The position numbers and the translations under genes were made by a program. From IMG/VR virus record IMGVR_UViG_3300021255_002723, positions 1 to 64,000 of that record: a DNA stretch of 64,000 nt. The stretch is one strand, 5' to 3'. This document shows, piece by piece, positions 38,105-58,978 of the stretch. The stretch is from a virus. Lineage: Duplodnaviria > Caudoviricetes. The notes under the pieces were generated by a model that was given only the letters and a program-made list of their open reading frames with translations, searched no databases and was not told the origin of the DNA. Numbering within the stretch: the first letter of the stretch is position 1; each line of letters opens with the position of its first letter.

Positions 38105-38140
38105 AAAAAGAGCAACTTTAATTAGTTGCTCTTTTTATTT
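38105..38140 (+). terminator. intrinsic terminator (insertion target of the element at 38141)
   Basis: aaaaagagcaact-ttaatt-agttgctcttttt. Confidence 0.8.
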
Positions 38141-38225
38141 GGCAATAACATAGAAGTTGACCCAACAAATCCCATCTTACTGATATTTATTATTAAAAAT
38201 AACTGTATAAACACATTAAAACGAT

Positions 38226-38699
38226 ATGAAGAAACTTATAAGATTAACAGAATCTGACTTACATAGAATTGTGATAGAGTCAGTGAAAAGAATCATCAAA
38301 GAAAATAATCAAAGGCATAAAAAAATAATAAGAGAATTCGAAGATGATGAAAGAGACTTTGGACAGTTCGGAGATTATCCACCATCTATGGAAGACATAG
38401 AAAAAGAATCAATGATAGATTGCACATTCTTGATTAATCAAAATGAATTAATATTAGAGCCAAGCGGAAACGTAATTAAAAACGATATACCAGATGATGA
38501 GTGGTGCTCAATAGAAATAACACCAGTATTCGAGAAAGATATAAATAGCCTATATGTTGATGACCTAAATTGGGAGTATTGCGAAGTGTCAGCCGAAATG
38601 GAAAAATCAATGGAATTGAAAACAATGATTGATAACGCAATAGAACAACACTTTGACGAAATATGCCAAAAAATATATAATACATCACCATATTCCTAA
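38226..38699 (+). CDS. LTES-leader family protein (cassette cargo)
   Basis: Starts MKKLIRLTESDLHRIVIESVKRIIKE. Confidence 0.8.
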   Translation: MKKLIRLTESDLHRIVIESVKRIIKENNQRHKKIIREFEDDERDFGQFGDYPPSMEDIEKESMIDCTFLINQNELILEPSGNVIKNDIPDDEWCSIEITPVFEKDINSLYVDDLNWEYCEVSAEMEKSMELKTMIDNAIEQHFDEICQKIYNTSPYS

Positions 38700-38722
38700 A
38701 TAAATATTTTGTATAACTATAC

Positions 38723-38757
38723 AAAAATGAGCAACCTAGCTAGGTTGCTCATTTTTT
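38723..38757. terminator. subterminal terminator of the cassette
   Basis: aaaaatgagcaacct-agct-aggttgctcatttttt; a near-identical copy lies at about 57391-57423. Confidence 0.8.
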
Positions 38758-38795
38758 AGATATATGGGTCAACTTCGATGTTATTGCCTTTTATT

Positions 38796-39026
38796 TTACA
38801 TTGACATCATCTGTTGTAGCTTTCTAAGCTCCTTGACTATGCCTCCAAGTTTTTCTATGGTAACTTCATGCCTAGATACGCCACCGCCAAGGATTTGGTT
38901 GTACAAACCTTCTAATTGGTCTGCACACACCCTAACCGTTTCACTGTCATTAGGATTCTTATATTCTTTTAGCATTTCCTTACTCCCTATATATTCATTA
39001 ATTACTTCATTGATAATATCCTTCAT
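38796..39026 (-). CDS. small hypothetical head-region protein
   Basis: MKDIINEVINEY...MLKEY. Confidence 0.6.
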   Translation of the reverse strand: MKDIINEVINEYIGSKEMLKEYKNPNDSETVRVCADQLEGLYNQILGGGVSRHEVTIEKLGGIVKELRKLQQMMSM

Positions 39027-39031
39027 AACAG

Positions 39032-40672
39032 TTAATCATCCATTAAAATATCCCTTATTTCAAGTAACTTTGCGATGTCCTTTACAATTGATTCTTTGTT
39101 GAACTTCTGTTCTTCCAACTGTGACTTCAATTGCTTCAACTCTGTATTTTCAGCGTCTTCCTTCAACATCTGGTTTATCTTTTCAATGCATTCATTTTTG
39201 AACTTGTTGAAAAGCTTTTCCTTTCTCTTCTCTGCGATTGGACTTCTGAAATCAGTTATCTGCTGAACGAATGACATTTCAGACTCAGTAAGAGTGTCTT
39301 TCAACTTGCTTTCAAAGTTCTTTACAAGCTTGCTAGGGTCTACTGACTCATTTATGGCATCACCCTTGTGCTTGTTCATATATTCACATATGTTGTTGGT
39401 GCTCTCAGCCAATGTTGCAACGTTAACTACAGAATTCTTCTTGGTGAAGATGTTATGACCAGACTCATATAAGGTTCTCATTTCATCGTTGATGAAATCA
39501 GTAGGAATAATATTGTTCTCTTTAAGTATGTTCCTAAACTTTGCGTTTGACTTCAACAATGTTTCCCTATTGATTGTAGGTACAACTGCTTCATATAGTT
39601 TCTGTGCCAACTCTTCTGGCTTTAATATATCAGCCATCTTACCACGATAGTTTCTTATTGCATTGTAATAGTTAAACTGACTTGACAAATTGCTGTCTTC
39701 TTTGATTAGCTTTACAACATCCCTAACAACTTTCTTGTTGTTTTTGAACAATTCTGGAAGTCTTTCTTCAAATATATGGTTTAAGATACCAAAGTTATTT
39801 GTATTAAGTTCAGCAGCAAGTTCATTTTCATGTCTACTGTCTTCAACTGCTTCGTCTAGCATCTCTTTCACATAATCATAAGCCTTGAAATCGTTTTTTT
39901 GAAGAGCTTCGTTCATTATACTGATGTAGTTTGAAAACTCTTCTTGGTATTTATTTTTTTTCATATTAACTTTGTTTTCTTTTATCGTTTTTTTAGGTTT
40001 TTTCTCTTCTTGTCTAATCAATGAATTATACTGGGCAATTGTCATTCCACCCAATTTGCTTGATTTCTTTTCTAGCGCTGAATTTGGTGTATTATACTGT
40101 CTAATAAATTCAACTAATTTTTCACTCATAGACGGTGAATCTTTTATATCATAATTCATCCATGCTTCATTGCTTGGATTACTAGGTTTATTTGAATTAA
40201 TGTATTCTCTAACCGTAACATTCAAACGTCCATTGTTGCCACTTATAACATAAATGAAATCTAAATACTTATCAACACCATCTATTTTATTTAACAAATC
40301 AGCCAATTCTTCTGACGAAACAGTATACCATGTTGTTACAACTCTAGGCGTTAAAAATATCCTTCCTTTAAATGCTGCTGTGTCATATACTGCATCTTGC
40401 ACAGCTCTTACAACATTTTCGTCAACATATTCACTATATAATGCTTTTCCAAGTATATTGTTAGCCAAATTCTTTGAAATATCCCAATGACAAAGTTTGT
40501 CATCATACATAAATTCTTTTTCGCCATCCAAACTTGTCTGGAAATATCCAAATGAAATTATGTTTGGCTGTGTATAATGAAACGATGCTTTACGCTCGTC
40601 TGTGCCATCGTCATATAGATTAAGTGTATCTGGATTTCCACTAAAATATTCTAGTAAATTATGTTTTTTCAT
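39032..40672 (-). CDS. head-region protein, apparently two fused modules
   Basis: 546 aa downstream of the portal; an internal MKKNKYQEE begins a helical second half. Confidence 0.6.
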   Translation of the reverse strand: MKKHNLLEYFSGNPDTLNLYDDGTDERKASFHYTQPNIISFGYFQTSLDGEKEFMYDDKLCHWDISKNLANNILGKALYSEYVDENVVRAVQDAVYDTAAFKGRIFLTPRVVTTWYTVSSEELADLLNKIDGVDKYLDFIYVISGNNGRLNVTVREYINSNKPSNPSNEAWMNYDIKDSPSMSEKLVEFIRQYNTPNSALEKKSSKLGGMTIAQYNSLIRQEEKKPKKTIKENKVNMKKNKYQEEFSNYISIMNEALQKNDFKAYDYVKEMLDEAVEDSRHENELAAELNTNNFGILNHIFEERLPELFKNNKKVVRDVVKLIKEDSNLSSQFNYYNAIRNYRGKMADILKPEELAQKLYEAVVPTINRETLLKSNAKFRNILKENNIIPTDFINDEMRTLYESGHNIFTKKNSVVNVATLAESTNNICEYMNKHKGDAINESVDPSKLVKNFESKLKDTLTESEMSFVQQITDFRSPIAEKRKEKLFNKFKNECIEKINQMLKEDAENTELKQLKSQLEEQKFNKESIVKDIAKLLEIRDILMDD

Positions 40673-40742
40673 TTAAATACTATTTCTTATAAATATAAAT
40701 AAATAGCAAAAGGTGCAACATTTGAGTCACACCTTTATCATC

Positions 40743-42773
40743 TTATTTTTCATCAACGAATTTGCTCAACGCATCTATCATTCTGTCAAACTCTTCATTG
40801 ATTAGCAATGACTCGCTGTCATAAATGTCAGCCCTCTTGTATTCCGTTTCTTTCGGAGTCGTTTTATGTTCAGTCAATACATCCATGTACTGTTTGAAAA
40901 AGTTTTCAGTTATTAGTGGTTTGTTCTTGCTTACAGACTCCATCGGTGCGTTAGGGTCATTTCCCATATCGGCTGTTGGCATTGAGCCTTCTGTGCCAGC
41001 GATGTCTCCTGTATCGTCACTTCCTGGAGAGCCAAGTCCATCGAGTTCACCTCCTGCGTCCATTGGTGGTGGAGCACCGCCTCCTGGCATGCCTCCTGCC
41101 ATGCCACCTCCGCCCATTCCACCGTCAGCACCCATGCCGCCTTGTCCTTGCTGGTCATCCATATACTCAGCTCCAGGCTCTCCATAGATTCTATCAACGG
41201 TGTCGAAGATACCAGTCTTCTTGATAATTTGAGTAGTCTTTTCAAGTTCAGCAGCGATACCCTTCTCAAGACGTATCTCTTCAAGGTTCTCCTTAATTTC
41301 TTTCTCAGACCATTTCATAATCTGCTTCAATGCACGAGTCTGTGACATAACTGGTAGACCATTACCTGGGTCTGACACAGCGTCTCTAACGGCATCAATC
41401 TTCTTCTGCATGTTTTCAATCTCAAGTTGTTCTGCTTGTGTTGATGGGTTATTCATTGACAACGTGAAGTTGGTCAATTCATCATTGAAGCCTAACAAGA
41501 ACAAGTGTATTGATGCAACCTTAGTCAATTCCATCAAGAACGCTTGCTGTATTCTGTTCACCGTTCTAGTGAAACGAATGTCCATAAGTGCTAGGTTTTT
41601 ACCTTCACCAACACCCTCTTCAAAGTTCAAGAATGACTTAGGAATTCTAAGCGCTGTTAACACCTTATTCTGTACGAACTTGATGTCATCCAATGCCGTC
41701 ATGTTCTGAGCAGCAGAAAGCGTGTCAATAGGTGTTGGCGCATTTTCATCACGAACAGGTATGAAAATATCTTGGTCAACTGATAATATGTTCTTACGAA
41801 GGTCAACTTGACCAGTCATTGGGTCGATAATTGGAGTTCTCTTAAATTCATTTGCTATTCTTTCAACGTATGCCCCCACATCAGCATCGTCAATAGCACC
41901 AACAAATATCTTATATACACGCCTTTCAATAGAACGCTCAAGACGATAAATAAGCATCATGTCTTCCATCAAGGAAAGCATACGCCAGTGTCTACGAGCA
42001 GCGTTGAGGTAACTCACTCCATAAGGAAGGTATAGTGAATTGGTAAGCAAACGGAAATGAGCAATCTGCCAGTCACGGAATGGGATTTGAGATTGATTAT
42101 CATCCAACCAAATGAATTGGGTTGACATATCGGCATCATCTTTTGTTATGCCGTTAACTGCTATTGAAGCACCTGCTCCATAAGGATTTTGTATTCCGTT
42201 TTCAATTCTCTCCACATTAAACACTGGAAGCTGTTTCCAACTTTTAACACCATTCTTATGGTCAATGTCCAATAACATAAACTGATTACCATACTTACAC
42301 ATCGCACGTATAATCATTTGACCAGTAAGCTGAATATTAAGTCTGTTTACAAACAAATCCTCCAATATGTTTTTAATACGGTCTGATTTTGAATAAACAT
42401 TAACGACCATACCCTTATCGTTGGTTATGGTACTCTCTTCAGAAACAATATCCAATGCTGCACCTATCTCTGGAAATGCATCCATCAAGTCAGCATCACG
42501 ATACATAAGTTTAACGTTGTTCAGACCAGCATATGCAGTAACGGATAGATTAACGTTTGCCTTAATCCATCTGTTTTTTAAAAACTTATCTTGTTGAAGC
42601 TCTAGCTTTTTTTCAATGTAATCCTCTTTGTCAGTTGTCTTATACAAGACTTCTTTGTCAGTATGGCTCATGTCATATGTATTGACATGAGGAGTGACAA
42701 TATCTTGCGGATTCCATTGACCTCTTATGGCTTTATCTAGGGCTTGAAATACTGTTGTACTTTTCTTTGCCAT
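40743..42773 (-). CDS. portal protein (T4 gp20-like)
   Basis: PEIGAALDIVSEE, IAHFRL, MEDMMLIYRLERSIERRVYKI, ALRIPK, DIRFTRTVNRIQ. Confidence 0.95.
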   Translation of the reverse strand: MAKKSTTVFQALDKAIRGQWNPQDIVTPHVNTYDMSHTDKEVLYKTTDKEDYIEKKLELQQDKFLKNRWIKANVNLSVTAYAGLNNVKLMYRDADLMDAFPEIGAALDIVSEESTITNDKGMVVNVYSKSDRIKNILEDLFVNRLNIQLTGQMIIRAMCKYGNQFMLLDIDHKNGVKSWKQLPVFNVERIENGIQNPYGAGASIAVNGITKDDADMSTQFIWLDDNQSQIPFRDWQIAHFRLLTNSLYLPYGVSYLNAARRHWRMLSLMEDMMLIYRLERSIERRVYKIFVGAIDDADVGAYVERIANEFKRTPIIDPMTGQVDLRKNILSVDQDIFIPVRDENAPTPIDTLSAAQNMTALDDIKFVQNKVLTALRIPKSFLNFEEGVGEGKNLALMDIRFTRTVNRIQQAFLMELTKVASIHLFLLGFNDELTNFTLSMNNPSTQAEQLEIENMQKKIDAVRDAVSDPGNGLPVMSQTRALKQIMKWSEKEIKENLEEIRLEKGIAAELEKTTQIIKKTGIFDTVDRIYGEPGAEYMDDQQGQGGMGADGGMGGGGMAGGMPGGGAPPPMDAGGELDGLGSPGSDDTGDIAGTEGSMPTADMGNDPNAPMESVSKNKPLITENFFKQYMDVLTEHKTTPKETEYKRADIYDSESLLINEEFDRMIDALSKFVDEK

Positions 42774-42826
42774 TATAAACCTTTTCTATAAAAAATAATT
42801 ATTTTTATATAAATATCAAGACTATC

Positions 42827-44704
42827 TTATTTAACTCCACCCATAAGCCACATATACGTTCCATTTGGAACATTATCATATTTATGTAGATTTTTTCCTG
42901 AATAGAATGGCAAACCAACAGAAGGTGAAATAGCAGAGCCATAATTGATTCTAGGCTTGTTCATCCTAATTGCATTTGTCATCATATAGGCATTAAGAAT
43001 TGATTTGTCTTTGTTTACAGTATTCTGTATTCTATTGACAGTAAACTGCATTACAAACAATCCCATTGCCAACGCAGTAAGGGTATCGTCATGCGCACCG
43101 TCTTGGTGGTCTATTCTAGCATTTTCACCCTTGAATATCCATGTCTCCAATTCGTTGATAACCCTAGCAGAACGAATCTTAAACTCATCGTTACGAACAA
43201 GTCCTGCAAAGTTAGCCAATACTGGATAACGGTTTCCTTGGAAATGGAAACCAGGAAGTTTATCCGTATATCCGTCATAGTTTTTAGTTGACCTCTGTAC
43301 TGTATATGTCTTTTGATTTGAATCTTCATAGTAAAGGTTTTTGTACCCCATTTGAAGCATCGTCAATATACAAGCATCACCTTGACCACCAGTACAGTCA
43401 ACGACAACAAACGCATCATTGTACAACGTGCCATACTGATAGCACAGCGCACCGATGTCATCACCTAGCTTTTTACCAACATATTCCGCAACTTGTTCTA
43501 TGATAGGCATTCCGTTTTCATCCCTACCGTCCATATCAATTATCTCTATGGCAGTTCTATCGGCTGATACACCTCTAGATGGGTCGCAAGCTAGAATGTA
43601 TCTATGCCCTTCAATTGGTTTCTTCCAAAACCAAGTCTCTTCAACCAATGGGTCAGCGAAATCCTCAAGCGGTTCTCTGTTGTTAAGCTTCTCTTGCATT
43701 TCAATAAACTCTGGAGCAACAACGTTGTCAGCAGAACCCATGAACGATACGTCTAGCTCTTGGGCTATTTTCATTGAGTCGTTATTGAACGACTTACACA
43801 TATCTTCATACCAAGGTGCTGTAGGCTTCCATCCCTTATGCTCTAATTCTGCCCACCTTTCCTCATCATACTTAACGCTACCCTCATCATCTATGATTGG
43901 GTCTTGGTCGTACATCCATTCACCTGTGTCTTCATTTTTCTTTTTCCACACAAGGAACTTGTTGAATCGTGGGTCTTGATACCAACGGAACTGAACAGCA
44001 ACAAAGTTGTTTTCACGGCTTAAGGCTTGTCTGTATGTGTTGTAATACAACTCATCCCTACCATTAGGCGTAGACACCATCACAGTCTTGGAATTTGGGT
44101 TTGAGGCCATTGTAGCGGCAGCAGTGGTAAATACTGCCACACCCTCTTCAATGAACGCAGCCTCGTCCAATATAAGCACAGATACAGCAGAAATACCACG
44201 AGCAGCATTAGGACCGCTAGCACGTGCAATCACTCTGCAACCGTTGAAAAGTTTTAACTCGCCTTTTGCGTCTTTAACGAATATTGATTTTATGTTTTTT
44301 TCTGAATTTGGGTCAGGACTAAAATACTCACTTCCCCAAATCCATCTTGGAACTTGCTCAAGAAAATCACGGATTTTAATAATAATTTCTTGTGCTTGTT
44401 CAAGTTTGTTTGCAATACACAACACAGTCTCTGGGGAATCTTTTGATGCAAATGCGCACTGAGCAGTTACCCACGCGCTTGATAATGTTGTGATACCACA
44501 CTGTCTAGGTTTAATTGCAACCACATTTCTGTTTTCAGCCAATGCCCTCAAGAAAGCCCTCTGTCTAGGGAAACAGTGGAATTGGGTCTTCTTACCTTTA
44601 ATTGCATTGAAAGTAGATAGGTATTTTTCAATGAACGCTATCCTAGATTTGTCAGCATAGCACATTGCATAGTCTTGCTGGATTTGTTTGTAATCGTATA
44701 TCAT
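42827..44704 (-). CDS. terminase large subunit (T4 gp17-like)
   Basis: KPRQCGITT, ILDEAAF, VSTPNG, QELDVSF, CDPSRG..AD, HDDTLTA. Confidence 0.95.
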   Translation of the reverse strand: MIYDYKQIQQDYAMCYADKSRIAFIEKYLSTFNAIKGKKTQFHCFPRQRAFLRALAENRNVVAIKPRQCGITTLSSAWVTAQCAFASKDSPETVLCIANKLEQAQEIIIKIRDFLEQVPRWIWGSEYFSPDPNSEKNIKSIFVKDAKGELKLFNGCRVIARASGPNAARGISAVSVLILDEAAFIEEGVAVFTTAAATMASNPNSKTVMVSTPNGRDELYYNTYRQALSRENNFVAVQFRWYQDPRFNKFLVWKKKNEDTGEWMYDQDPIIDDEGSVKYDEERWAELEHKGWKPTAPWYEDMCKSFNNDSMKIAQELDVSFMGSADNVVAPEFIEMQEKLNNREPLEDFADPLVEETWFWKKPIEGHRYILACDPSRGVSADRTAIEIIDMDGRDENGMPIIEQVAEYVGKKLGDDIGALCYQYGTLYNDAFVVVDCTGGQGDACILTMLQMGYKNLYYEDSNQKTYTVQRSTKNYDGYTDKLPGFHFQGNRYPVLANFAGLVRNDEFKIRSARVINELETWIFKGENARIDHQDGAHDDTLTALAMGLFVMQFTVNRIQNTVNKDKSILNAYMMTNAIRMNKPRINYGSAISPSVGLPFYSGKNLHKYDNVPNGTYMWLMGGVK

Positions 44705-44785
44705 AATTGAAACTTTCTAAATTTTAATAAATATAGCGTAACTTTCAAAAGTTATTCATTTATAAATATTTACGAATAAAAAAAA

Positions 44786-44879
44786 GAGCGAATCAGAAAG
44801 ATTCGCCCATATGTTCGACAAGTCGATTGGACTTGTTCGTAAATGGTCTGAAATTAGGGTAGGTTTGATTGATGTGTAA
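44786..44879 (+). pseudogene. 3' end remnant of an IS1595-like transposase
   Basis: Encodes SESERFAHMFDKSIGLVRKWSEIRVGLIDV*, near-identical to the C-terminus of 58525-58734. Confidence 0.85.
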
Positions 44880-44883
44880 TGCA

Positions 44884-45207
44884 TTAACCTTCCATTCCCA
44901 AAAACTGGCCACCTTCATCATATTTTTCAAAATTGTTAGTGACCTTTGCGACACTTCTAACCGTTACTAATATTCCTTTAAAATTCAAGTCAATTAATCC
45001 TTCTCCTTCACTACCATTTAAAGCACCAAAAGAAAAACGGTTATCCATATATGGTAGTTTTTTAACATCTTCAAAATCCATACCATCTATTATTTGCTTT
45101 GCTTCCATATAGTCTTCGTTATGGCCTTCTTTCAATACTCTATTTACAGACTCCTTCACAATTCTATGAAGTTCACTTTCTGTTAATCTAATCAATTTTT
45201 TATTCAT
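44884..45207 (-). CDS. LTES-leader family protein
   Basis: Starts MNKKLIRLTESELHRIVKESVNRVLKE. Confidence 0.8.
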   Translation of the reverse strand: MNKKLIRLTESELHRIVKESVNRVLKEGHNEDYMEAKQIIDGMDFEDVKKLPYMDNRFSFGALNGSEGEGLIDLNFKGILVTVRSVAKVTNNFEKYDEGGQFLGMEG

Positions 45208-45260
45208 TGTTGTATATTTTTTTATAAATATTAATTAAAAAGCAAAAATTTGATATTTGC

Positions 45261-47269: not shown

Positions 47270-47341
47270 ATTACAAATTTTATATATAAATATTTAGACA
47301 AAATAAAAAAGGGATACTTCTAAGTACCCCTTTTGTTTATT

Positions 47342-49647: not shown

Positions 49648-52600
49648 TTAATAATTTCTAACGTCATCATAAGTGCCCCTTACATTATCAAAGCCCCTAT
49701 TATCGAATTGTATGTTTCTTCTGATGTTTGGAGTAAACTTGTCTAACGCCCTAATATATACAACACTCTTAGGCTTCATCTCAATTTCATCCCATTGGAC
49801 GCATAGGCAATAATTATACCCTATAAGGTTTGATAGCCAAGTGTCCGTAAAGCACTTATAAAGCTTTCCTTGCTTGTTATCTTCCTTCGACTGCATTACT
49901 ACACCATTGTTACATATAAAGTCCTTCAGAACCTTTCTTTCGGTTTCCCAACGCTTTTTATATGGGTTTGAATTACTGCTGCCGTCTAATGCAAACTCTT
50001 CCTTTAGAACCGTAATATATTTCTTTACAGATTCATCAACGTGAATGTTTTTTTCCTTAAACCACTCAATGTTTTTTTGCATATATTTCGCAATTAATGC
50101 TTCTTTGTCTTTAACAATAGAATGATTAAGCAATTCAAAATTAAACAATACGTATTCAGTATCAAACTCAAAACCATCAATACCTAATGATAGGTATAAT
50201 TTTGACAACTGTTTATCAGGGTTTCTATCCGAATACCACAACAAAGGTATGTGGTTATTTAAATAGAAATAAGTTAAATCATTTTCATCACTTTCCGAAA
50301 TAACTTGAATAATGGCATTTAGTAAATCTTTGTCAACCGTATTATCATATTCTTCAATCATTGAAGAAATTCTGTCATATTCTCTGTTGTTTCTTGCATT
50401 ATCAAGTTTATTTTGTAACAAATAATATTCTTTTTGTTTGTCCAAGAAAATATTATTGTCTTTGTTAATCTTATCCCTTAAATTAATAATATTAAAACCA
50501 TTTATATTTGCTATTATATAATGTCCATCTGTATAAGTGGTATATTTTTCGCATTTATATGCGTGGGCTGTAAAATATATTCCATAGCCGTATGTTCCTC
50601 TGCTTCCACCTTTTATCTTTGTTGGGTCAACAGTATCCCACTCTGTTCCATTTCCATCTTCTCCTGTGCCATGAAAAACATATCCATCTTCTGCCATTTC
50701 GCCAATAACCTTATATCTAGCCATTTGGTTATTCCTGAAAATGTCGTATCTAGCACCTTCCGTTACAGACTCTGTAATTGAATTCGTCTTGTCATAAACA
50801 GCATTCGAAAGCTTCCAAAGACGGTCAAGATAGCCTGTTCTTCTCAGTATCTTATACACAATGTTTCCGCTTCCGCTTTCGCCATGCTTCTCAAGACTGC
50901 TCTTGCGCATTTCCTTTACCTTTTTCCAAAGATAATCTGCATCATCACCCATCTGTTCTATTTCATAAGAATCATCCGTAGCTGCAAGAGCGTCATACAT
51001 ATCGTCAATGATTGTCATGATTTTTGCTGCCTTGTCCTTAATTGAAAACTTGTTCAACCTTATTGGTTTAATATCATTAGGATTTGGCTCTTTTATCCAA
51101 TCATTTTCCTCCAAGTCATAAATGCCATTTGATTCTGGCATTTCACCCAAATTCTGAACATAAAGCTCAACTTGGTATCCCATTATCTGAAGACCTTTAT
51201 GCTCGTTGTTCCACTCATTCTTCTTTGCATCTAAATAATCATGGACAAACTCTGTCTTTTCATCAATTTCATTGAAATCAACAATAAGATGTAAATCAAT
51301 GTCAGAATATTGAGACCAATTGAAATTACAGATTGAACCTGTTAATATTATACCACTAGGCTCAACCCAAGTCAAGTTTACATATTTCCAAAAATCGTCT
51401 GCAATGTCTAATAGTTTAAGCCTAATTCTTGAATCTAGCTTGCCATCTGGTTTCCATATATTTGGAACTAATTCATGTTTTTTCTTGAATGAAGATAAAT
51501 CTATTTCAGAACTATCTACCTCAAAATCAAAATTCTCTTTAATTATTTTTAGTTGGTTTTCAGAAACTACTATTTTCTTATTTTTATTCTTTGACTCAAT
51601 TAACGATAAATTACCGCTAGTGTCAAGTTTATATACATTACCATTAAGTTGAACCACAGCAAAACCTTCACGGAAATTACCAACATAATCAAACCATTGG
51701 TTGCTCAACAATCTACCTTCTTGGTTGATGAAATTCCACTTGTTATTAAGACTAACCTTAGCAAAACCTTCACGGAAATTACTGATAAAATCAAACCATT
51801 GGTCACTTAAAAGCCTACCTTCTTGATTGATGAAATTCCATTTGCCATTAAGTTCGACACTAGCAAAACCTTCACGGAAATTACCAACATAATCAAACCA
51901 TTGGTTGCTCAACAATCTACCTTCTTGGTTGATGAAATTCCACTTGTTATTAAGACTAACCCTAGTAAAACCTTCGCTGAAATTACCAACAGTATCAAAC
52001 CATTGGTTACTCAACAATCTACCTTCTTGATTGATGAAATTCCATTTGCCATTAAGTTCGACACTAGCAAAACCTTCACTGAAATAACCAACATAGTCAA
52101 ATACATCGTGTATATCTTCTCCATTAGCAAGACGTTGCATAACATTGGCTATAAGTTCATTCCACTTATTGTTTGGCTTAAACGCCTCAAAGAAATTCAT
52201 ACCAATTACTTGACTCACTTCCTTTGCATTCATAATACTGTCATCACCACCATTATCGTGATTCCAACGACAAGTGCAAGTGTTTAACATGCCATTTTCA
52301 TTAACGCTTACGGCTATCATAGACAAGCCGTACTCATCCAATGGACAACCTTCAGATGGTGCTTCCTCAACATTCTCAAAACCATTTCTTAAGCAAAAAT
52401 AAAATTGGTTGATACCGTCACTAGTGTATGAATTAAACATATTATTATCGTGCGTTACACACCAAGATACGTAATCACCGTATTCCTCTGCTTGTTCAAA
52501 AGAGTCAATTCTAACAATCTCATAATCAGAAGGGGTGTTAAACGCCATCTTGCCAATTTCAGCCTTCTCAGCCTCAAGATTGTCACTCATTGCTTTTGCA

Positions 52601-55119
52601 AACCTTTGAATAAGTTCTTGACAAGACATTCCATTAAGATTCCTATCATACTCATTGATATGAGCATCTGAAGCCACTAACTTAAGTGTTGAATTAAGAT
52701 TTCCAATGTCATTGGCAGTTCTTAATTCACCGTCACAGAACATCCTTGTCACGCCAAGGATGAACTTGCTGCCTTGAGGTGTTCTTAACGTTGGAATGTC
52801 GTTTCTGAGTTTAATCCTTATAAATTTATCAGCTTCTTGTTCATTATAGTTAAGTCTTTGCATTACAAGTTTTTTTGCAGCTGCAATGGACTTTGATTCT
52901 TGCGACTCTATAATTAGATGAGAATTATTCATGTTTTTATTTTCATATTGCACGTTTCCCATTGGTTTTATCCCATCCTCATAATATCTCCTTATATCTG
53001 CAACAACAGCTTGAGGTTTAGCATCTGAGTATGAAACTGAATGCAATGTATTTCCTTTGTCATCGGTAAAATCTATGTCAACGTCAACAGCATTTCTAAT
53101 AAAATCTCGTATTACATAGAACTGTTCATTTGTAGGCTCTTTAGTCATGTCAAGAATTCCAGTGTTAACGTCACATCTTATTGCACCGTGATTCATAAAG
53201 TCAACAACATAGTTATAGCGATACTCGTCATTCCATATTTTTATCCCATTCTGTTTATAAACAGCTGCTATTTGTCTATGGTCTGTTTCTCTATATCCAT
53301 CACTTCCAAAATTCAACAATTTCCCATCTGGAAGAATATATCCAGCTTGGTTCAATCTGCTAGTTAAACCAAACTCATCTATGGCCAAAGAAATAATATC
53401 ATAATTTTCTTTTGGCTGTTCTAAATCTTTTCCGTTTTCTTCTTTGTTTTCTTCGTCAGTCCAAAGTTTAGTAATTTTATGGAGTCTATCACTTAATGCT
53501 GTATATATCTTAATATCTTTTGGGTCTACACTTATTTCTGGGTGCGTCTTTTTCATCCAAGAGCTTATATACCAACCATCAAACCCATATTTTTCTTTTC
53601 CTTGTTTCAAAAAATATTGTAGGCCGTAATTTGCCTTGTTAAACAAATCATCATATTTATTTTCTATTATTTGCGCTTTATTTTTTTTACTTTCGTGGAA
53701 ACGATTTCCTTGAGGTTTTATCCCTTCATCAAAATATGCTAATATATCGTTTATAATCCTATTAGGGTTTGCATTTTTGTATTCTGCACCACATATCATT
53801 TCTGCATAAAATCTCCCCTCTTTATATGAGGAAATGTCCAAAAATAGACTTCCATCAAATTCTATGATATGTTTTTTCAATGGTTTTATTTGCTCTTTCG
53901 TTGGTTTTTTAGTTAATTCTATTCCTCCAAGGTTGCCAATTCTTATATTCCCTAAATTCAAGAATTTACCAACAGTCATGCCATTTATTTTAGATATTTC
54001 ACTATGGTCTCTGAAAGTTATAACATCACCATTTGTTAAAATATATGAACTATTCCCTTTGGTTTGTATTTTTTTGGCAATTGCATTAATATCCATAACT
54101 GCGCCAATTTCAGATGAATCGAAACTAGCAGATTCATTGATATTTAAACCATCTAATAGATTTTTATTCTTTGACTCATAATATTCATTTCCTTGTGGCT
54201 TAATTCCTTCTGAATAAAACCTGTCAATTTCTCCCATGACATATCTCCAATCTGGACGTATATAGTGCGCCCCAATACTACTTTTTCCTTGGTATATGTC
54301 CAAGTATAGTTCCTCATCTGCATAACAAGCAATCGCTCTTCTTAACACGTCTCTTTGCTCACTTGTTGGCTCGCTACCAATATCAATTGACTGGGGCAAT
54401 ACCCTAATATTACCCATTCTTATAAAATCAAATTTATTGTTTATGTTTGGTATCCTACATATTTCATTATGTTCTGATTCAGTGTATACCACAACACCAT
54501 TTGTCAAGATAAAACCTCTACAATCCTTGAAATAGTCACCATGCCTTAATAATTTCATGGCCATATTGTTGATGCTATCTTTGTTGCTCACATCCACGTC
54601 ATTGTCAGAATACAAGTTAACAGTTTCAAATGAACCACTGCCATCATTCATGCAAGTTGTTAAAATCTCGTTTTGCATCTTACTGCCAAACATATCTTCT
54701 AACGTATCATAATCCACATAGTCAGTACCGCAAGTATGATAAGTTTCATTATCTAGATATTCTAATTCAAACTCAACATTATCATTAATGTATTCCATCA
54801 ATGACTCTTGCGTGTTCTCATACTCAGCATCTTGTAGCCATTCTTGATATTCATCTTCGTCAAAATCCCAAGAATAGTTAACTGCGCCAACTTCAGATGA
54901 ATCGAAACTAGCAGATTCATTGATGTGATAACCGTTACCGCCTACTGGGGGATTATCACTTTCAGCACCAATTTCATATTCATCAATTTCTGGTGCCGCT
55001 TCGTTCACATTTACAGAAACGTCATTATGGCTGACACCATCAGTGCCAACCATAACTTCGTTTAATCTATTTTTAATCATTATTAAACTGCCTTCATTAA
55101 ATCTAACAGTCTTACTCAT
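49648..55119 (-). CDS. 1823-aa multidomain (polyvalent-like) protein: three repeat domains, WG repeats, nucleotidyltransferase, ART-like domain
   Basis: GSICNFNWSQYSDIDLH...VELY (pol-beta NTase), YVFHGT...GYGIYFT (ART-like), KWNFINQEG repeats, three (G/S).IL..G...H..I...G.IR modules. Confidence 0.75.
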   Translation of the reverse strand: MSKTVRFNEGSLIMIKNRLNEVMVGTDGVSHNDVSVNVNEAAPEIDEYEIGAESDNPPVGGNGYHINESASFDSSEVGAVNYSWDFDEDEYQEWLQDAEYENTQESLMEYINDNVEFELEYLDNETYHTCGTDYVDYDTLEDMFGSKMQNEILTTCMNDGSGSFETVNLYSDNDVDVSNKDSINNMAMKLLRHGDYFKDCRGFILTNGVVVYTESEHNEICRIPNINNKFDFIRMGNIRVLPQSIDIGSEPTSEQRDVLRRAIACYADEELYLDIYQGKSSIGAHYIRPDWRYVMGEIDRFYSEGIKPQGNEYYESKNKNLLDGLNINESASFDSSEIGAVMDINAIAKKIQTKGNSSYILTNGDVITFRDHSEISKINGMTVGKFLNLGNIRIGNLGGIELTKKPTKEQIKPLKKHIIEFDGSLFLDISSYKEGRFYAEMICGAEYKNANPNRIINDILAYFDEGIKPQGNRFHESKKNKAQIIENKYDDLFNKANYGLQYFLKQGKEKYGFDGWYISSWMKKTHPEISVDPKDIKIYTALSDRLHKITKLWTDEENKEENGKDLEQPKENYDIISLAIDEFGLTSRLNQAGYILPDGKLLNFGSDGYRETDHRQIAAVYKQNGIKIWNDEYRYNYVVDFMNHGAIRCDVNTGILDMTKEPTNEQFYVIRDFIRNAVDVDIDFTDDKGNTLHSVSYSDAKPQAVVADIRRYYEDGIKPMGNVQYENKNMNNSHLIIESQESKSIAAAKKLVMQRLNYNEQEADKFIRIKLRNDIPTLRTPQGSKFILGVTRMFCDGELRTANDIGNLNSTLKLVASDAHINEYDRNLNGMSCQELIQRFAKAMSDNLEAEKAEIGKMAFNTPSDYEIVRIDSFEQAEEYGDYVSWCVTHDNNMFNSYTSDGINQFYFCLRNGFENVEEAPSEGCPLDEYGLSMIAVSVNENGMLNTCTCRWNHDNGGDDSIMNAKEVSQVIGMNFFEAFKPNNKWNELIANVMQRLANGEDIHDVFDYVGYFSEGFASVELNGKWNFINQEGRLLSNQWFDTVGNFSEGFTRVSLNNKWNFINQEGRLLSNQWFDYVGNFREGFASVELNGKWNFINQEGRLLSDQWFDFISNFREGFAKVSLNNKWNFINQEGRLLSNQWFDYVGNFREGFAVVQLNGNVYKLDTSGNLSLIESKNKNKKIVVSENQLKIIKENFDFEVDSSEIDLSSFKKKHELVPNIWKPDGKLDSRIRLKLLDIADDFWKYVNLTWVEPSGIILTGSICNFNWSQYSDIDLHLIVDFNEIDEKTEFVHDYLDAKKNEWNNEHKGLQIMGYQVELYVQNLGEMPESNGIYDLEENDWIKEPNPNDIKPIRLNKFSIKDKAAKIMTIIDDMYDALAATDDSYEIEQMGDDADYLWKKVKEMRKSSLEKHGESGSGNIVYKILRRTGYLDRLWKLSNAVYDKTNSITESVTEGARYDIFRNNQMARYKVIGEMAEDGYVFHGTGEDGNGTEWDTVDPTKIKGGSRGTYGYGIYFTAHAYKCEKYTTYTDGHYIIANINGFNIINLRDKINKDNNIFLDKQKEYYLLQNKLDNARNNREYDRISSMIEEYDNTVDKDLLNAIIQVISESDENDLTYFYLNNHIPLLWYSDRNPDKQLSKLYLSLGIDGFEFDTEYVLFNFELLNHSIVKDKEALIAKYMQKNIEWFKEKNIHVDESVKKYITVLKEEFALDGSSNSNPYKKRWETERKVLKDFICNNGVVMQSKEDNKQGKLYKCFTDTWLSNLIGYNYCLCVQWDEIEMKPKSVVYIRALDKFTPNIRRNIQFDNRGFDNVRGTYDDVRNY
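51610..52110 (-). repeat. tandem 102-bp (34-aa) WG-type repeats in an A-B-A-B pattern
   Basis: GFASVELNGKWNFINQEGRLLS.QWFD alternates with GF..VSLNNKWNFINQEGRLLSNQWFD; about 4.5 units. Confidence 0.9.
54097..54923. repeat. 45-bp direct repeat pair (INESASFDSSE.GAV)
   Basis: taactgcgccaaYttcagatgaatcgaaactagcagattcattgat at about 54097-54141 and 54879-54923, one mismatch. Confidence 0.85.
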
Positions 55120-55142
55120 TAATAAAATTTAAAACACAAAAA

Positions 55143-55463
55143 TTAGTTTTCACAATCATATGCCCACTCATATGTGCCATTACCGCCACACTTACAAATC
55201 TGCTGTCTAAGGTCAGTATAGGTAGCACCGTTCTCACCAATGAACTGAGGAATTTCCTTATACTTGTTAGCATTTTCAGTTGGAAGAGCTTTTTGGTATC
55301 CAGTGATGTTCCAATCATTAGATGAGAATGTCTTCATACCATTGTCACTGTAGCCATCCTTATCCAATGCGGTCTTGTATGAGTCTACGTCTGTATAAAG
55401 CAATTGGTTATCCATATCATAACCATAACCTTCATACATATAATCTAAAATGTTAGTCACCAT
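55143..55463 (-). CDS. hypothetical protein
   Basis: 106-aa ORF with a late motif upstream. Confidence 0.65.
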   Translation of the reverse strand: MVTNILDYMYEGYGYDMDNQLLYTDVDSYKTALDKDGYSDNGMKTFSSNDWNITGYQKALPTENANKYKEIPQFIGENGATYTDLRQQICKCGGNGTYEWAYDCEN

Positions 55464-55526
55464 AATTTAAAATATTTTATATTTAATTATTTTATTCTAT
55501 AAATATTATTCAATAAAAAAAAGGTA

Positions 55527-57149
55527 TCAAACATTTGATACCTTTTGTTGTTGTTTAATAAAGTTTTCTATCTCTCTATCATTTTTCCTTGCTAATGCCA
55601 TATAATCATAATCACCTTCTTTATTAAGTTTAGCAGTATTCACAGTATTATATCTGACAGCCTCCCAATAATCCAACTCTTTATATTCCATATCAATATC
55701 CCAAGATTTCAAATATTCATCATCTAAACCAATTTTCTTTAACGTTTCATAAACTTGAGCTATTGTACCTACTCTGAATAACTTATACAGATATTGGAAC
55801 ATCGAATTATAGTTTTTGCTTCTACTTCTATTATATTTTCCTTCGTTATCGTACATTATCTCCCCAGCAAAAGAGTCTGCATATGATTTGCAATATTCAT
55901 CATCCCATCCCATTGCATCAGAAAACTTGTCTTTCTGTGGGTATAAAGATATAACACCTCTTCTTACTATCAAATAGGCGCATTTTTTGTTTGTATCAAT
56001 TCTATCATAGACATTCCCTCTCTGAAGGTCGTAATATTCATTTTCCATATTTTTTTTGATTAAATACGCCTCCCTAAATGAATTTGCACCAATGGACAAG
56101 CAATAGTCCGTCAGCATTTTTGATATTTTATATGTATATTCGTTTGGCTCATCAGATAAGTATCTTCTAACAGCATCTAGTTTTTCGGCAATACCTTGTA
56201 TTCCTCCCCAAGTTTTACTAGGAGCAGCCATTATAGTTCCTATTTTATTTTTGAATTCGCTAAGTTCATATTTTGTTAAATACTCCATTGTTTTTTTAGG
56301 GAAATTTTTGCCATCAAAATCGTGATTTGCATATGCTATAAAACAAATCACTGCTTCAAGACAATCATACACCTTTCTGTAATATAATCTATCTTCAGAA
56401 ACATACCCTTCTCCATATTCAACTTTATCGTTTGCATCTTTACCATTTGGGTTATTAAATTCTTTTTCTGAATCAAAAATCTTTACATATCTACTGCCTA
56501 ATAGTGTACGATATAAAAATGATTGAGCCAACGCCATTTTATTTGGGTCTTTTTCAAAATCAACAATTAATACATCAACTGATTTAATATATCTATGCGC
56601 GTTTGGAATCATTGGTTCATATGAAAAAATCCTGTCCTCAGACTCATTAGAGATATGATGTTGTACATCATCATAGAAATTATGGTTTATCCAATTTTGT
56701 ATTTCTTCTTCTGAAGCATTCGGATGCTCTTTTTTCCATCTGTTAAGCCAAAATACATGCGCTTTGTCATTTGGTGCTGCGTTTCCATTTAATTCCGCTT
56801 GTTTCGTGTAGCCATACTTGTCGGTAAATGTTCCTCCTCCCCAGTAATTGACTTGTTTTCCCTTATATTTAGTCGCTAGAGCGCTTCCATCAAGAACAAT
56901 CCTAACCCCTCCTTGACTGAATTTTTTGGAATAGCCAAATTGACTATTCCCAATTCTAGTGCAAGAAAGGTAGAATTTTCTCTTTCTATCATAGTTATCA
57001 GCATCTTTTGCATATGCGGATTGTAAATATATTTTATCATCCTTACATATCTTATAGCCATGATTTAATGACGTAAAATGATATAATATATTACTTAATC
57101 CTTCAGTCAATAAATGCTCTTTAGACTCTTTAATATATATTTTTTTCAT
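55527..57149 (-). CDS. leader-bearing protein with ART-like N-terminal domain
   Basis: MKKIYIKESKEHLLTEG leader; ILYHFT...YLSCTR...NESEDRI. Confidence 0.6.
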   Translation of the reverse strand: MKKIYIKESKEHLLTEGLSNILYHFTSLNHGYKICKDDKIYLQSAYAKDADNYDRKRKFYLSCTRIGNSQFGYSKKFSQGGVRIVLDGSALATKYKGKQVNYWGGGTFTDKYGYTKQAELNGNAAPNDKAHVFWLNRWKKEHPNASEEEIQNWINHNFYDDVQHHISNESEDRIFSYEPMIPNAHRYIKSVDVLIVDFEKDPNKMALAQSFLYRTLLGSRYVKIFDSEKEFNNPNGKDANDKVEYGEGYVSEDRLYYRKVYDCLEAVICFIAYANHDFDGKNFPKKTMEYLTKYELSEFKNKIGTIMAAPSKTWGGIQGIAEKLDAVRRYLSDEPNEYTYKISKMLTDYCLSIGANSFREAYLIKKNMENEYYDLQRGNVYDRIDTNKKCAYLIVRRGVISLYPQKDKFSDAMGWDDEYCKSYADSFAGEIMYDNEGKYNRSRSKNYNSMFQYLYKLFRVGTIAQVYETLKKIGLDDEYLKSWDIDMEYKELDYWEAVRYNTVNTAKLNKEGDYDYMALARKNDREIENFIKQQQKVSNV

Positions 57150-57223
57150 AACTCATACGCAATATATATACATAAATAGTTAGCAATCAATATTTATTAT
57201 AAATAAAATACACATAAAACGCT

Positions 57224-57322
57224 ATGATATATTTAAAGAAATTTGAAAATCACAAACAATATGAAGACTATGTGGCAAGTGGATTTTTACACAATTTTTC
57301 TGTTGTTCACATACCAAAATAA
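57224..57322 (+). pseudogene. 32-aa stub homologous to the N-terminus of the 1-724 protein
   Basis: MIYLKKFENHKQYEDY versus MGKYIKLFKNHAEYEE; has its own ATATTTAT motif and terminator. Confidence 0.55.
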
Positions 57323-57359
57323 TAAAAGGTACTGCATTTGTTACAGTACCTTTTATTAT
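57323..57359 (+). terminator. intrinsic terminator (insertion target of the element at 57360)
   Basis: taaaaggtactg-catttgtta-cagtacctttta. Confidence 0.8.
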
Positions 57360-57426
57360 GGCAATAACATCGCAGTTGACCCAAATATCTAAAAAATGAG
57401 CAGCCTAACCAGGTTGCTCATTTCTA

Positions 57427-58008
57427 TTAATGTGGTTTAGAAGGTGTTGAACCATTCGTATTGATATTGGTTTCATAGTCTTCTCTTGCATAGAGATAGT
57501 TAGAAACGAAGGTCAGCACTCTTTTTATCTGTTCTTCATTATGGGGTAGTAAAGTATGCAACTTTCTACTACGTGTGGTTTTGTCAGAGTAAGACACTCT
57601 ATAAAAGTCTTGTGTATTGAAGTTATATTCGATTGCTCCGATACCAAATGGCCTTAACGACACCGTTAATTGTCCGTGCAATACTATTCTTTCATTGTCT
57701 ATGTACTTTACATCAGTGAAACGCAAATCGACTGGGTACGACTGATTTGTCTTCTCATTGTGTTCAACAAACTCAAGGGTCAAGTTTGGAAAGTTGTCGT
57801 GTATTGCAAGTGACAACGCTTTCATTGTTAAGTTTTCGCTACCTCCCATCTTTGTTCTTGCATTAGGATTTCTACTATTCATATAATCTTATTGTGCATT
57901 GTAGTTCGCACCGTGTGTTAGTGCAGCGCCACGATAGCCTATTTCTTTGATTACTTGTTTTACTATGTTATGTATATCATTCTCTGTTAATCTGATTATC
58001 TGTTTCAT
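57427..58008 (-). pseudogene. LTES-leader family gene interrupted by an in-frame TAA
   Basis: ATG 58008 gives MKQIIRLTENDIHNIVKQVIKE...NAQ*DYMNSR; the stop at 57889-57891 is in frame with the 57427-57882 ORF. Confidence 0.8.
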
Positions 58009-58044
58009 TCTGATACGATATTTACCATAAATATCTTCTCGCTG

Positions 58045-58076
58045 CAAAATTACATTCAATTTCTGATAAAAACAAA
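58045..58076 (-). promoter_or_regulatory. Bacteroidota sigma70-type promoter inside the element
   Basis: Minus strand TTTG, 20 nt, TAATTTTG upstream of ATG 58008. Confidence 0.6.
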
Positions 58077-58125
58077 TTCTACGTGATATTTATTAGAAAA
58101 ATAACGAATTAATACGTATTATAAT

Positions 58126-58521
58126 ATGAATAAGAAACTTATAAGACTAACAGAATCAGACCTTCATAGAATTGTAAAAGAGTCTGTACAGAGGGTTCTA
58201 AATGAAGCTTATGACTATAGTTTGCGCAATACATTGCCTAGAGATATAAACGGCATACCATTACGTGTCGGAGATAAAGTTACTTACTATAATAGAACTG
58301 GAAACTATGATACAATACCTTATAGGATTGGTGGTACAATAGAGAATATTGAAAAAACTGATGAGGGGGATGGGTTTGTTGTTACTATACAAACAAAAAA
58401 GCGTGGAACAATCTCTACAGAATGGGCAAAGCACGATGTTGAAAAGGATAATAGCAGTGGCGTAAGTCATCATACTGATGATTTGACAAGACAAATAACG
58501 CATGTCTTATTTCCACATTAA
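58126..58521 (+). CDS. LTES-leader family protein (passenger), SH3/KOW-like body
   Basis: MNKKLIRLTESDLHRIVKESVQRVLNE; DING.PLRVGDKV. Confidence 0.8.
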   Translation: MNKKLIRLTESDLHRIVKESVQRVLNEAYDYSLRNTLPRDINGIPLRVGDKVTYYNRTGNYDTIPYRIGGTIENIEKTDEGDGFVVTIQTKKRGTISTEWAKHDVEKDNSSGVSHHTDDLTRQITHVLFPH

Positions 58522-58524
58522 ACA

Positions 58525-58734
58525 CTAAGCAGCAACAAGACCAACTCTAATCTCAGACCACTTTCTAACAAGTCCAATTGACTTGTCGAACATATGGGCG
58601 AATCTCTCTGATTCGCTCATTTTTCTTGTGTTCCAACGATACACAGCCTCGTCAATGTACTGCTGCAAATGCTCATCAGAGGTGAAATACGAGGTGAGGG
58701 AGATAACGCTGTTGAATTTCTTGAAATCTATCAT
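58525..58734 (-). pseudogene. internally deleted IS1595-family transposase
   Basis: N-terminus MIDFKKFNSVISLTSYFTSDE fused to the C-terminal HLQQYIDEAVYRWNTR motif; the zinc ribbon and most of the catalytic core are absent. Confidence 0.85.
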
Positions 58735-58978
58735 AACACTTGGTTTTTTATTTAAATTCTAATACAAATATAGGATTTTTCAACTCCCAAGTGCTGGCTC
58801 TTATACATATAAATTTACGAAATTGAATATATTCTGAATAGTCAATTTACAAAGTAAATTGTTAACATCAATAATATGGTAAAAAACGAATACAAAAATA
58901 ATTCCTCAGAATCACGAGGATTCCAAGGAATTATTAAAAAGTTGGGTCAACTTCTATGTTATTGCCTTTATTATTATT

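Follow-up and report, generated by a model that had tools for sequence, protein, structure and literature searches.

An IS1595-family element common to jumbo phages and Prevotella chromosomes carries phage genes with a shared N-terminal leader

The DNA analysed here is a stretch of 64,000 nucleotides from a giant, rumen-type tailed phage (IMG/VR record IMGVR_UViG_3300021255_002723, positions 1 to 64,000), referred to below as the window. It encodes a T4-like head module, i.e. a gp23-like capsid protein, portal, large terminase and S77 protease, and contains two mobile elements, element 1 and element 2, whose passengers are small genes opening with a common N-terminal sequence, the leader. The 23-base end pattern GGCAATAACATNGNAGTTGACCC matches four times in the window (38141 and 57360 on the plus strand, 38766 and 58944 on the minus strand) and never in 100 shuffles; with up to three mismatches allowed, the complete 94,121-bp record holds the same four copies only. 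They form two inverted pairs, 38141/38788 and 57360/58966, element 2 being oriented opposite to element 1, and the inverted ends common to both are 24 bp long. The left end of element 1 is identical to the right end of element 2 over 26 nt (38141-38166 and 58941-58966), and the other two ends agree to 92% over 64 nt (38725-38788 and 57360-57423), hairpin and U-run included. When folded, these built-in hairpins gave -20.3 kcal/mol (z -6.9) in element 1 and -15.8 kcal/mol (z -4.0) in element 2, with U6 after each; that of element 1, with a loop of less than 3 nt, was missed by a simple terminator scan and found by folding. Read directly, exact A/T-rich duplications of 8 bp flank element 1 (TTTTATTT, 38133-38140 and 38789-38796) and element 2 (TTTATTAT, 57352-57359 and 58967-58974). 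A preliminary description of this DNA, made from its letters alone, had proposed two elements with common terminal inverted repeats (TIRs) and target duplications of their own, one end identical over 26 nt and the other alike over about 65 bp with a terminator; these measurements bear it out.

Element 2 contains a gene of 131 amino acids (aa), passenger A, a convergent 69-aa transposase remnant and a divergent frame that opens with the leader, passenger B (Table 1). All three passenger frames begin M(N)KK[LI]IRLTE[SN]D[LI]H.IV, and the bodies of six leader genes in the window are mutually unrelated (lowest non-self BLASTP expect value, E, 0.03). Passenger B is a pseudogene, in which a change from CAA to TAA at codon 40 (57889-57891) splits a 193-aa gene into an open reading frame (ORF) of 39 aa with the leader and one of 151 aa with the body. 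Its orthologues in the related copies L131 and L192 are intact at 193 aa (96% and 95% amino acid identity) and have CAG and CAA, respectively, at the broken codon. Reassignment of the stop codon was ruled out on the basis of these orthologues, and no second such case was seen. The three leader-bearing passengers with unrelated bodies of the preliminary description thus stand as to leader and bodies, but the third is a broken gene.

The 69-aa ORF of element 2 joins the first ~17 residues of a transposase to its last ~50-60. With residues 270-332 of an intact transposase it shares 74.6% identity, and its Pfam match (E 0.014) lies below the cut-off. The 2,599-bp copy L013 encodes a transposase of 332 aa that matches PF12762 (E 2.8e-44) and, at residues 23-69, the zinc ribbon PF12760 (E 2.8e-8), a domain deleted in the window remnant; intact transposases also match NF033547 (E 4.2e-57 and 1.6e-57, both over the 75-bit cut-off). 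Compared with the autonomous copy L131 (2,746 bp), element 2 has a 761-bp deletion in the transposase gene, while the ends are 82-92% identical and the first cargo slot (cargo A) holds a different gene. An 8-bp target-site duplication is a property of the IS1595 family of insertion sequences (IS). Elements with passengers that have no part in transposition, one in element 1 and two in element 2, and without a working transposase fit the passenger-carrying members of this family, known as transporter IS (tIS) and credited, in the available part of PMC3129680, to Siguier, Gagnevin and Chandler 2009. We thus show that elements 1 and 2 are a transposase-less and a transposase-deleted copy of one IS1595-family transporter IS; both the family assignment and the deleted transposase had been proposed before, and the intact gene that was to be sought is present, at 324-332 aa, in family copies on other contigs.

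A scan of metagenomes for the ends yielded at least 119 stretches and a scan of genomes 32. When a complete element is defined as two ends within 6 kb with a perfect 8-bp duplication, there are 35 of them, and 28 are distinct (counts of complete elements here and below are among the matches listed). The consensus of 56 ends is GGCAATAACATaGaAGTTGACCCA, 24 bp. A full transposase of 324-332 aa is present in 15 of the 28 distinct copies, together with one to three passengers each, in the canonical order end, transposase, convergent leader gene, second gene, built-in terminator, end. In these autonomous copies the terminator of the convergent leader gene is the antisense of the last codons of the transposase. 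Twenty-eight of the 32 stretches on genome contigs are labelled Prevotella or Prevotellaceae, one isolate included; the remaining four bear the labels Alloprevotella, Bacteroidales, 'uncultured bacterium' and an Alphaproteobacteria bin. The last (L186) is an end copy on a 6.8-kb contig in an Alphaproteobacteria metagenome-assembled genome, more likely the result of misbinning than evidence of a second host group. All three flanks tested of autonomous copies are bacterial, with GH26, a SusC-like receptor, peptidases S46 and C10 and polysaccharide synthesis genes. The G+C content is 28-42% in the elements, 33-37% in phage DNA and 46-56% in the bacterial flanks. The two elements of the window with their flanks had no match among the INPHARED phages (blastn, distant mode). 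Together these copies show that the family is found in T4-like jumbo phages of ~400 kb as well as in chromosomes of Prevotella.

Ends were also found by an IMG/VR scan in 11 other viral contigs. All eight TIR pairs that were located ignoring the flanks, the two of the window included, have identical 8-bp flanks which differ between sites. An empty-site allele of element 1, which the preliminary description had said should be sought in relatives, exists in the close relative L017. There the flank, with 98.3% identity over 812 nt, contains TTTTATTT once only and lacks the element; the uninterrupted target reads in the order of the upstream gene's terminator, one TTTTATTT and the right flank. In contigs X4 and X5, from two other studies, the match to the window ends exactly at 38789 and the records continue; X5 and L017 have the same 1-nt deletion at 38105. 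Stretches with no cover in X4 and X5 were not counted as evidence. The right junction of element 1 is bridged in a second sample of the source study. Five of eight elements examined, again with both of the window, are inserted in the T-run right after a terminator hairpin, and the target duplications of the complete elements have an A+T content of 95%. The family is thus shown to insert with an 8-bp duplication into A/T-rich sites, and the insertions are recent enough for empty-site alleles to exist.

Table 1. Features of the two elements, the leader genes and the prohead protease in the window (strand: +, - or. for none)
Feature	Position	Strand	Evidence or remark
Resident leader gene, 126 aa, outside any element	14821..15201	-	leader motif
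T4 gp21-type prohead core protease (Peptidase S77), candidate leader-cutting enzyme	35334..36071	+	PF03420 E 2.7e-24; PDB 5jbl E 1.3e-15
Resident leader gene, 108 aa, last in the prohead-protease row; element 1 inserted in its terminator T-run	37772..38098	+	kept in relatives
Element 1 target duplication, left copy TTTTATTT	38133..38140	.	single copy in L017 empty site
Element 1, 648 bp, non-autonomous (MITE-like, miniature inverted-repeat transposable element) IS1595-family cassette; order TIR, promoter-like motif, leader gene, terminator, TIR	38141..38788	+	missing at L017 site
Element 1 TIR, transposase-side end	38141..38164	+	26 nt identical to 58941-58966
Element 1 promoter-like motif ATATTTAT	38183..38190	+	precedes passenger
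Element 1 passenger, 157 aa, leader MKKLIRLTESDLHRIV and orphan body	38226..38699	+	reading frame and body search; body matches only itself among 5.8 billion proteins
Element 1 built-in terminator hairpin and U-run	38723..38757	+	-20.3 kcal/mol, z -6.9
Element 1 TIR, terminator-side end	38765..38788	-	end pattern match
Element 1 target duplication, right copy TTTTATTT	38789..38796	.	read directly
Decayed third cassette without TIRs: leader gene 44884-45207 (-) and 31-codon transposase tail 44788-44879 (+)	44780..45250	-	84%/78% repeats; hairpin
Element 2 target duplication, left copy TTTATTAT	57352..57359	.	read directly
Element 2, 1607 bp, IS1595-family, internally deleted transposase and two passengers	57360..58966	-	compared with autonomous L131
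Element 2 built-in terminator hairpin, 3' of passenger B	57393..57422	-	-15.8 kcal/mol, z -4.0; 92% like that of element 1
Passenger B, 193 codons, in-frame TAA at 57889-57891	57427..58008	-	orthologues in L131, L192
Passenger B upstream motif ATATTTAT	58027..58034	-	read directly
Passenger A upstream motif ATATTTAT	58086..58093	+	read directly
Passenger A, 131 aa, leader MNKKLIRLTESDLHRIV	58126..58521	+	only 3 close relatives, 84-89% identical
Transposase remnant, 69 aa	58525..58734	-	N-terminus fused in frame to C-terminal part
Passenger A terminator, antisense of transposase 3' codons	58594..58620	+	equal geometry at 44782-44808
TATATTTG box upstream of transposase remnant	58765..58772	-	sequence read; fits the Bacteroidota -7 consensus TAnnTTTG
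Element 2 TIR, transposase-side end	58943..58966	-	end pattern match
Element 2 target duplication, right copy TTTATTAT	58967..58974	.	read directly

The leader belongs to a large family, most of which is found outside the elements. Its members have the module KKLIRLTESDLHRIVKESVNRILKE, about 27 N-terminal residues, in common. At least one ORF with the KKLIRLTESDLH leader occurs in 25 of the 28 distinct complete elements, far above what chance would give; leader-bearing passengers, and not leader-less ones, thus prevail in the other copies as well. A profile of 36 columns, built from 65 leaders and run against 1.84 billion entries, matched 7,788 cluster representatives with E<=1e-3, of which 1,519 reach E<=1e-10. 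Three leader genes of the window lie outside the inverted-repeat pairs (14821-15201, 37772-38098 and 44884-45207). The third of these forms part of a decayed cassette and has its terminator supplied by the convergent transposase tail (-13.8 kcal/mol, U8). Of the 77 leader-motif hits counted in 619 kb of related phage DNA, about nine are inside elements. Five complete phage genomes of 401-413 kb have 11-19 leader-profile hits each and 0-3 ends, two of the genomes being without ends. Five Prevotella genomes (2.5-3.4 Mb) gave four leader-profile hits, every one within or beside an IS copy. We show that the members of this family share the ATATTTAT motif, a module of ~27 residues conserved as protein and a terminator, and that most of them reside outside transposons.

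The bodies behind the leader gave few matches. Nine small ORFs, passengers and neighbours, had no PHROG family and sub-threshold Pfam matches only; no Pfam match over the cut-off was obtained for the passengers of other elements and the multi-leader proteins, and a cluster look-up of ten leader proteins returned no named cluster. In the ESM Atlas the product of 44884-45207 scored best at 0.84 with unnamed viral clusters, which is a lead only. Structure predictions had a mean pLDDT of 50.0 for the element 1 passenger and 38.1 for passenger A (4-row alignment), values too low to base a fold search on.

The motif ATATTTAT stands 18-45 nt upstream of leader genes and, likewise, of genes for portal, terminase, protease and others. 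Its presence before each passenger, as stated in the preliminary description, is therefore correct for all three, but the motif is not specific to the cassettes. That leader and head genes have it in common suggests their co-regulation, and it may be a late promoter. The protease gene opens a same-strand row, in which the next two ORFs have degenerate leader-like N-termini and the last gene is the resident leader gene 37772-38098. The term 'capsid leader' is an interpretation, and the gp23-like major capsid protein (31530-33635) itself has no leader.

According to the part of PMC5694885 available, T4 internal proteins enter the core via a capsid targeting sequence (CTS), the protease gp21 cleaves behind Glu, with ITE-6 and LTE-619 as its sites in Alt; internal proteins of T-even phages are described, in the accessible text of PMC3012670, as highly diverse with only the CTS in common. 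LTE at residues 8-11 of the leader is a motif of the (L/I)xE type ending in Glu, a match to gp21 sites in sequence only, and among 141 distinct leader DNAs these residues are conserved at 93% (L), 99% (T) and 99% (E). By analogy with T4, the leader may thus be a propeptide for prohead-core targeting and cleavage, which the S77 protease would cut after LTE as in T4 internal proteins; we consider the case for and against to be about evenly balanced. The cargo would then be head-packaged, injected proteins. The S77 protease of the phage, the LTE match and the ATATTTAT motif common to leader and head genes lend the idea circumstantial support. As the most invariant residues are exactly L-T-E, a targeting-and-cleavage propeptide is the best single reading of the leader that its sequence and the T4 analogy offer, yet it could be wrong nearly as well as right, because conservation continues past the site, modules also lie internally and IS copies in bacteria have the leader too. 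When the S77 protease (20-row alignment) was modelled in complex with a leader of 36 aa (65-row alignment), the score was 0.01 against a mark of 0.32 with the controls unfolded, which speaks neither for nor against binding. An RNA run (X16; contigs only, with DNA possibly in the library) has eight short pieces on the window and none on the passengers; one piece matches only leader codons 38229-38287 and then continues in other sequence.

The overall explanation that we favour, as somewhat probable, is that the elements are copies of an IS1595 transporter IS with cargo from the phage leader family, that this cargo is swapped by recombination, and that the leader may act as a head-loading propeptide. 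Several findings weigh against it. Leader conservation continues for ~17 residues past the putative cut site, many proteins of the family have two to four copies of the module, some of them internal or C-terminal, and in several IS-borne ORFs the leader comes 146-221 residues after the first ATG; the leader is N-terminal in all six window genes, but not strictly so in the family as a whole. Internal cut sites would fit a polyprotein. Three of the 28 distinct complete elements (L008, L150 and L202) are leader-less, and autonomous copies in bacterial chromosomes carry leader genes too, which a purely phage-serving role does not explain. Passenger B is broken, so for this cargo, at the least, selection is not acting at present. 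An exact empty site of element 2 was not found, relatives being without the whole of 55527-58994; in L057, L060 and L061 the terminator hairpin is followed directly by the end of a 191-aa gene. Finally, the 94-kb record (~30% of the genome by CheckV) contains no intact transposase; the window copies, unable to move by themselves, must therefore rely on transposase in trans, and we infer as its source an intact copy of a co-resident phage or of the host chromosome.

A further-reaching version of the same account would have the transposon wired into the late programme of giant Prevotella phages and shuttling between phage and host chromosomes, with a cargo slot that is always head-tagged, a product packed and injected into the next cell, and chromosomal copies that fire on infection only and supply their product to the heads of the invading phage. 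We consider this unlikely. If true, the element would supply the phage with injected effectors like a plug-and-play library, and might be a Trojan horse for host or transposon.

A possible but doubtful alternative is that the leader has nothing to do with the capsid and is a general adaptor module, a short strand and an amphipathic helix, for partner binding or oligomerisation. Conservation over ~27 residues, past any cut site, would be explained by it, as would the two to four repeats and the internal and C-terminal positions. N-termini with half of the leader ((D)KIITESINxFLNE) on other cargo and on the ORFs 38796-39026 and 36068-36412 point the same way, and models place a helix at residues 9-29 with low confidence. 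An adaptor does not account for L-T-E as the most invariant residues, LTE being a documented gp21 cut site, nor for a family concentrated in phages with an S77 protease, with bacterial occurrences on IS only, and for a ATATTTAT motif shared with head genes.

With the head-loading propeptide retained as the preferred reading of the leader, the question is how the elements come by their cargo. The leader gene at 44884-45207 and passenger A (58126-58521) are 78% identical over 82 nt at the 5' end and 84% over 102 nt at the 3' end, and their middles are unlike. Between element 2 and L131, it is precisely the cargo between conserved flanks that differs. In P0168, a relative of passenger A, an insert of 63 aa splits the leader. 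From such comparisons we infer that cargo changes through homologous exchange via shared promoter-leader and terminator segments. It would be swapped with resident paralogues by homologous recombination, with crossovers in the conserved 5' stretch (promoter and leader) and in the 3' stretch (terminator or transposase tail), so that the transposon would sample a cassette pool which the phage already has and which the transposon did not make.

The preliminary description had assigned the opposite role to the elements, i.e. that the phage uses IS-derived cassettes to shuffle its head cargo. A phage-adapted system of this kind, with transposition as the main diversifier of capsid-loaded injected effectors, agrees with leader genes in 25 of the 28 distinct elements, with cassettes that are complete expression units (promoter-like motif, leader, body, terminator), and with a G+C content of the elements near that of phage DNA and not of bacterial flanks. 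It is nevertheless quite improbable. In the five complete genomes 11-19 leader genes stand against 0-3 ends, two having none, and most leader-motif hits in the 619 kb of phage loci are outside elements; one cargo is a pseudogene, and the element also sits beside ordinary genes in bacterial chromosomes. The Bacteroidota -7 promoter consensus is TAnnTTTG, and the TATATTTG box upstream of the transposase remnant, which we take to fit it, would be a promoter of host type. As the leader family is mostly resident, the transposon borrows such genes and is not the main shuffling device of the phage. The element is a selfish IS common to phage and Prevotella chromosomes.

Very improbable is a third alternative, that the 5' stretch is kept as a DNA or RNA signal for recombination or translation and that the peptide is incidental. 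The DNA of promoter plus leader is 63-91% alike between loci, the 5' untranslated stretch before the ATG is conserved, and its read-throughs INTYYNM and QYNTNRNM recur. At conserved residues, however, the leaders use many synonymous codons (six for Leu, four for Thr at 99% identity, both TCN and AGY for Ser); selection therefore acts on the leader protein, which largely refutes a nucleic-acid signal. Hardly credible at all are recombination cassette sites of the T4 type or an invertible switch. Both elements do adjoin terminators and have a promoter-like motif and stem-loop as in the units described in the available part of PMC2839356, but exact 8-bp duplications that are different at every site, a single-copy target at the empty site, a cognate DDE transposase within full-length copies and copies at unrelated bacterial loci refute them.

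Further observations concern the leader and its variants. N-termini of the half-leader type, (D)KIITESINxFLNE or MKIIITEQAFRKLLKESIEDIL without RLTESDLH, occur in the window at 36068-36412, 36420-37259 and 38796-39026 and in the second cargo slot of L101, L102, L136, L164, L187 and L208, and the leader seems assembled from two sub-modules. Many autonomous copies have cargo, convergent with the transposase, with the leader 146-221 residues from the first ATG of a longer ORF; such cargo was seen in L013, L109, L152, L155, L185 and L204 and in P0074, P0079 and P0119. The N-terminal domains of these long ORFs fall into few families (32-38% identity among L204, P0079 and P0074) with no Pfam match, and the codons right before the internal MNKK are also conserved. 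A leader-like stretch, IKLSETELKQVVKEAVNNLINE, lies within a 548-codon open frame at ~80221 (minus strand) of the source contig, outside the window. A short ORF before element 2 (~57224-57322, plus strand) opens with MIYLKKFENHKQYEDY, and MAIYLKKFETQAAYEAA opens a 245-aa passenger without leader in the Prevotella copy L202 (3949-6020); the two may represent a second shared family of N-terminal motifs. The double-glycine bacteriocin leader has the consensus LSxxELxxIxGG, and its first ten positions fit LTESDLHRIV; this candidate was ruled out, as KE stands in place of GG and no C39 peptidase was seen.

Other observations concern rearrangements and neighbouring genes. A 540-aa orphan gene (55527-57149, minus strand; no relatives in IMG/VR) and a short ORF lie between two similar terminator hairpins (55527-57326), a separate insertion or replacement adjoining element 2; in L057, L060 and L061 a single hairpin is present and these genes are absent. 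In L012 a partial extra end copy, GCAATAACATCGACA, directly adjoins the element at ~455-479, and in L010 (1525-1570) a transposase-side end abuts a terminator-type hairpin without an end of its own; both arrangements suggest nesting or rearrangement of copies. The gene at 33644-35161 (minus strand), immediately upstream of that for the capsid protein, encodes a very acidic 505-aa protein with helical ends and several LxE/IxE sites, a candidate scaffold. A 566-aa ORF beside the capsid gene (29679-31379, minus strand), with sub-threshold matches to a zinc finger, the restriction-endonuclease-like MTES_1575 and Vsr, may be a homing-type nuclease. The 1823-aa ORF at 49648-55119 (minus strand) has four tandem 102-nt repeats at 51638-52147 and a single PHROG match, to a family of unknown function (phrog_36119, E 1.6e-39). 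Thymidylate synthase (59505-60692, minus strand, 395 aa) matches positions 29-308 of a 335-position profile and probably contains an insertion of ~100 residues.

The preliminary description knew of no account of this combination, and none was found in the literature, supplements aside. The leader motif LTESDL was not found in published literature, phage-borne IS1595 copies with passengers did not turn up by title or abstract start, and no relevant title on insertion sequences or MITEs in jumbo phages was met, although supplementary gene tables of jumbo-phage surveys could mention them. To our knowledge, insertion sequences have seldom been reported in virulent phage genomes. Within the jumbo phage, Prevotella and rumen literature, PMC13037316 has no occurrence of transposase, insertion sequence or IS1595. 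A 2026 review (PMC13359090), in the part available, lists no selfish elements in jumbo phages other than satellites and homing endonucleases, and ascribes MITEs solely to giant viruses of eukaryotes. The consistent type of cargo, the sharing between host and phage, and the occurrence in jumbo phages of IS and MITE-like elements therefore appear to be new. Here Prevotella chromosomes and ~400-kb phages exchange a well-defined IS family that carries ready-to-express phage late genes; it offers a tangible route by which genes can flow among unrelated phages as well as between phage and host. Thousands of orphan proteins have one 27-residue module. If this is a head-loading tag, they would be a large untapped set of injected effectors, and the module a candidate tool to load foreign proteins into such heads.

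Among the systems that can be compared, the gp53 and gp54 proteins of the giant phage SPN3US likewise have identical N-terminal propeptides with prohead-protease motifs and are packaged in the head, but they involve an S80 protease and an AxE motif and are, as far as the accessible portion of PMC5694885 describes them, two paralogues only, without a mobile element. The promoter/stem-loop (PeSL) cassettes of T4-type phages are small orphan genes between a conserved promoter and terminator, shuffled by homologous recombination within hyperplastic regions (PMC2839356 and PMC4122927, each in part). In contrast to our elements, they have sigma-70-like early promoters, and the text available of PMC2839356 describes no TIRs, duplications, transposase or shared coding leader. 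What we invoke of PeSL-type exchange is the swapping of cargo only, since TIRs, duplications and a transposase family set the elements apart from PeSL. The CTS of T4 is 10 residues long. Like the leader, by analogy, it is a short N-terminal peptide on unrelated small proteins (IPI-III, Alt), and it is removed by the prohead protease gp21 (PMC3012670 and PMC5694885, in the parts available), of which this phage encodes an S77 counterpart. In the leader too, a motif of the (L/I)xE type comes to its end at residue 10-11; LTE is a gp21 site in Alt according to the same part of PMC5694885. Unlike the CTS, the conserved part of the leader extends over ~27 residues and can be internal or repeated, and its family, a putative analogue, is far larger (7,788 clusters), with some members on a transposon. 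With MITEs, element 1 (648 bp) shares both ends and a duplication, the lack of a transposase and the need for mobilisation in trans; unlike them it is coding, and a full expression unit with promoter-like motif, ORF and terminator. The closest likeness is to the transporter IS, as described in the literature accessible to us: an IS1595 DDE domain with an N-terminal zinc ribbon, TIRs, an 8-bp duplication, passengers and transposase-less derivatives are common to both. There the described cargo is resistance or metabolic genes, whereas here it is one family of phage late genes with a common module and a phage-type motif; here, moreover, the terminator of the cargo is the antisense of the 3' codons of the transposase, and the element is common to a bacterium and its jumbo phages.

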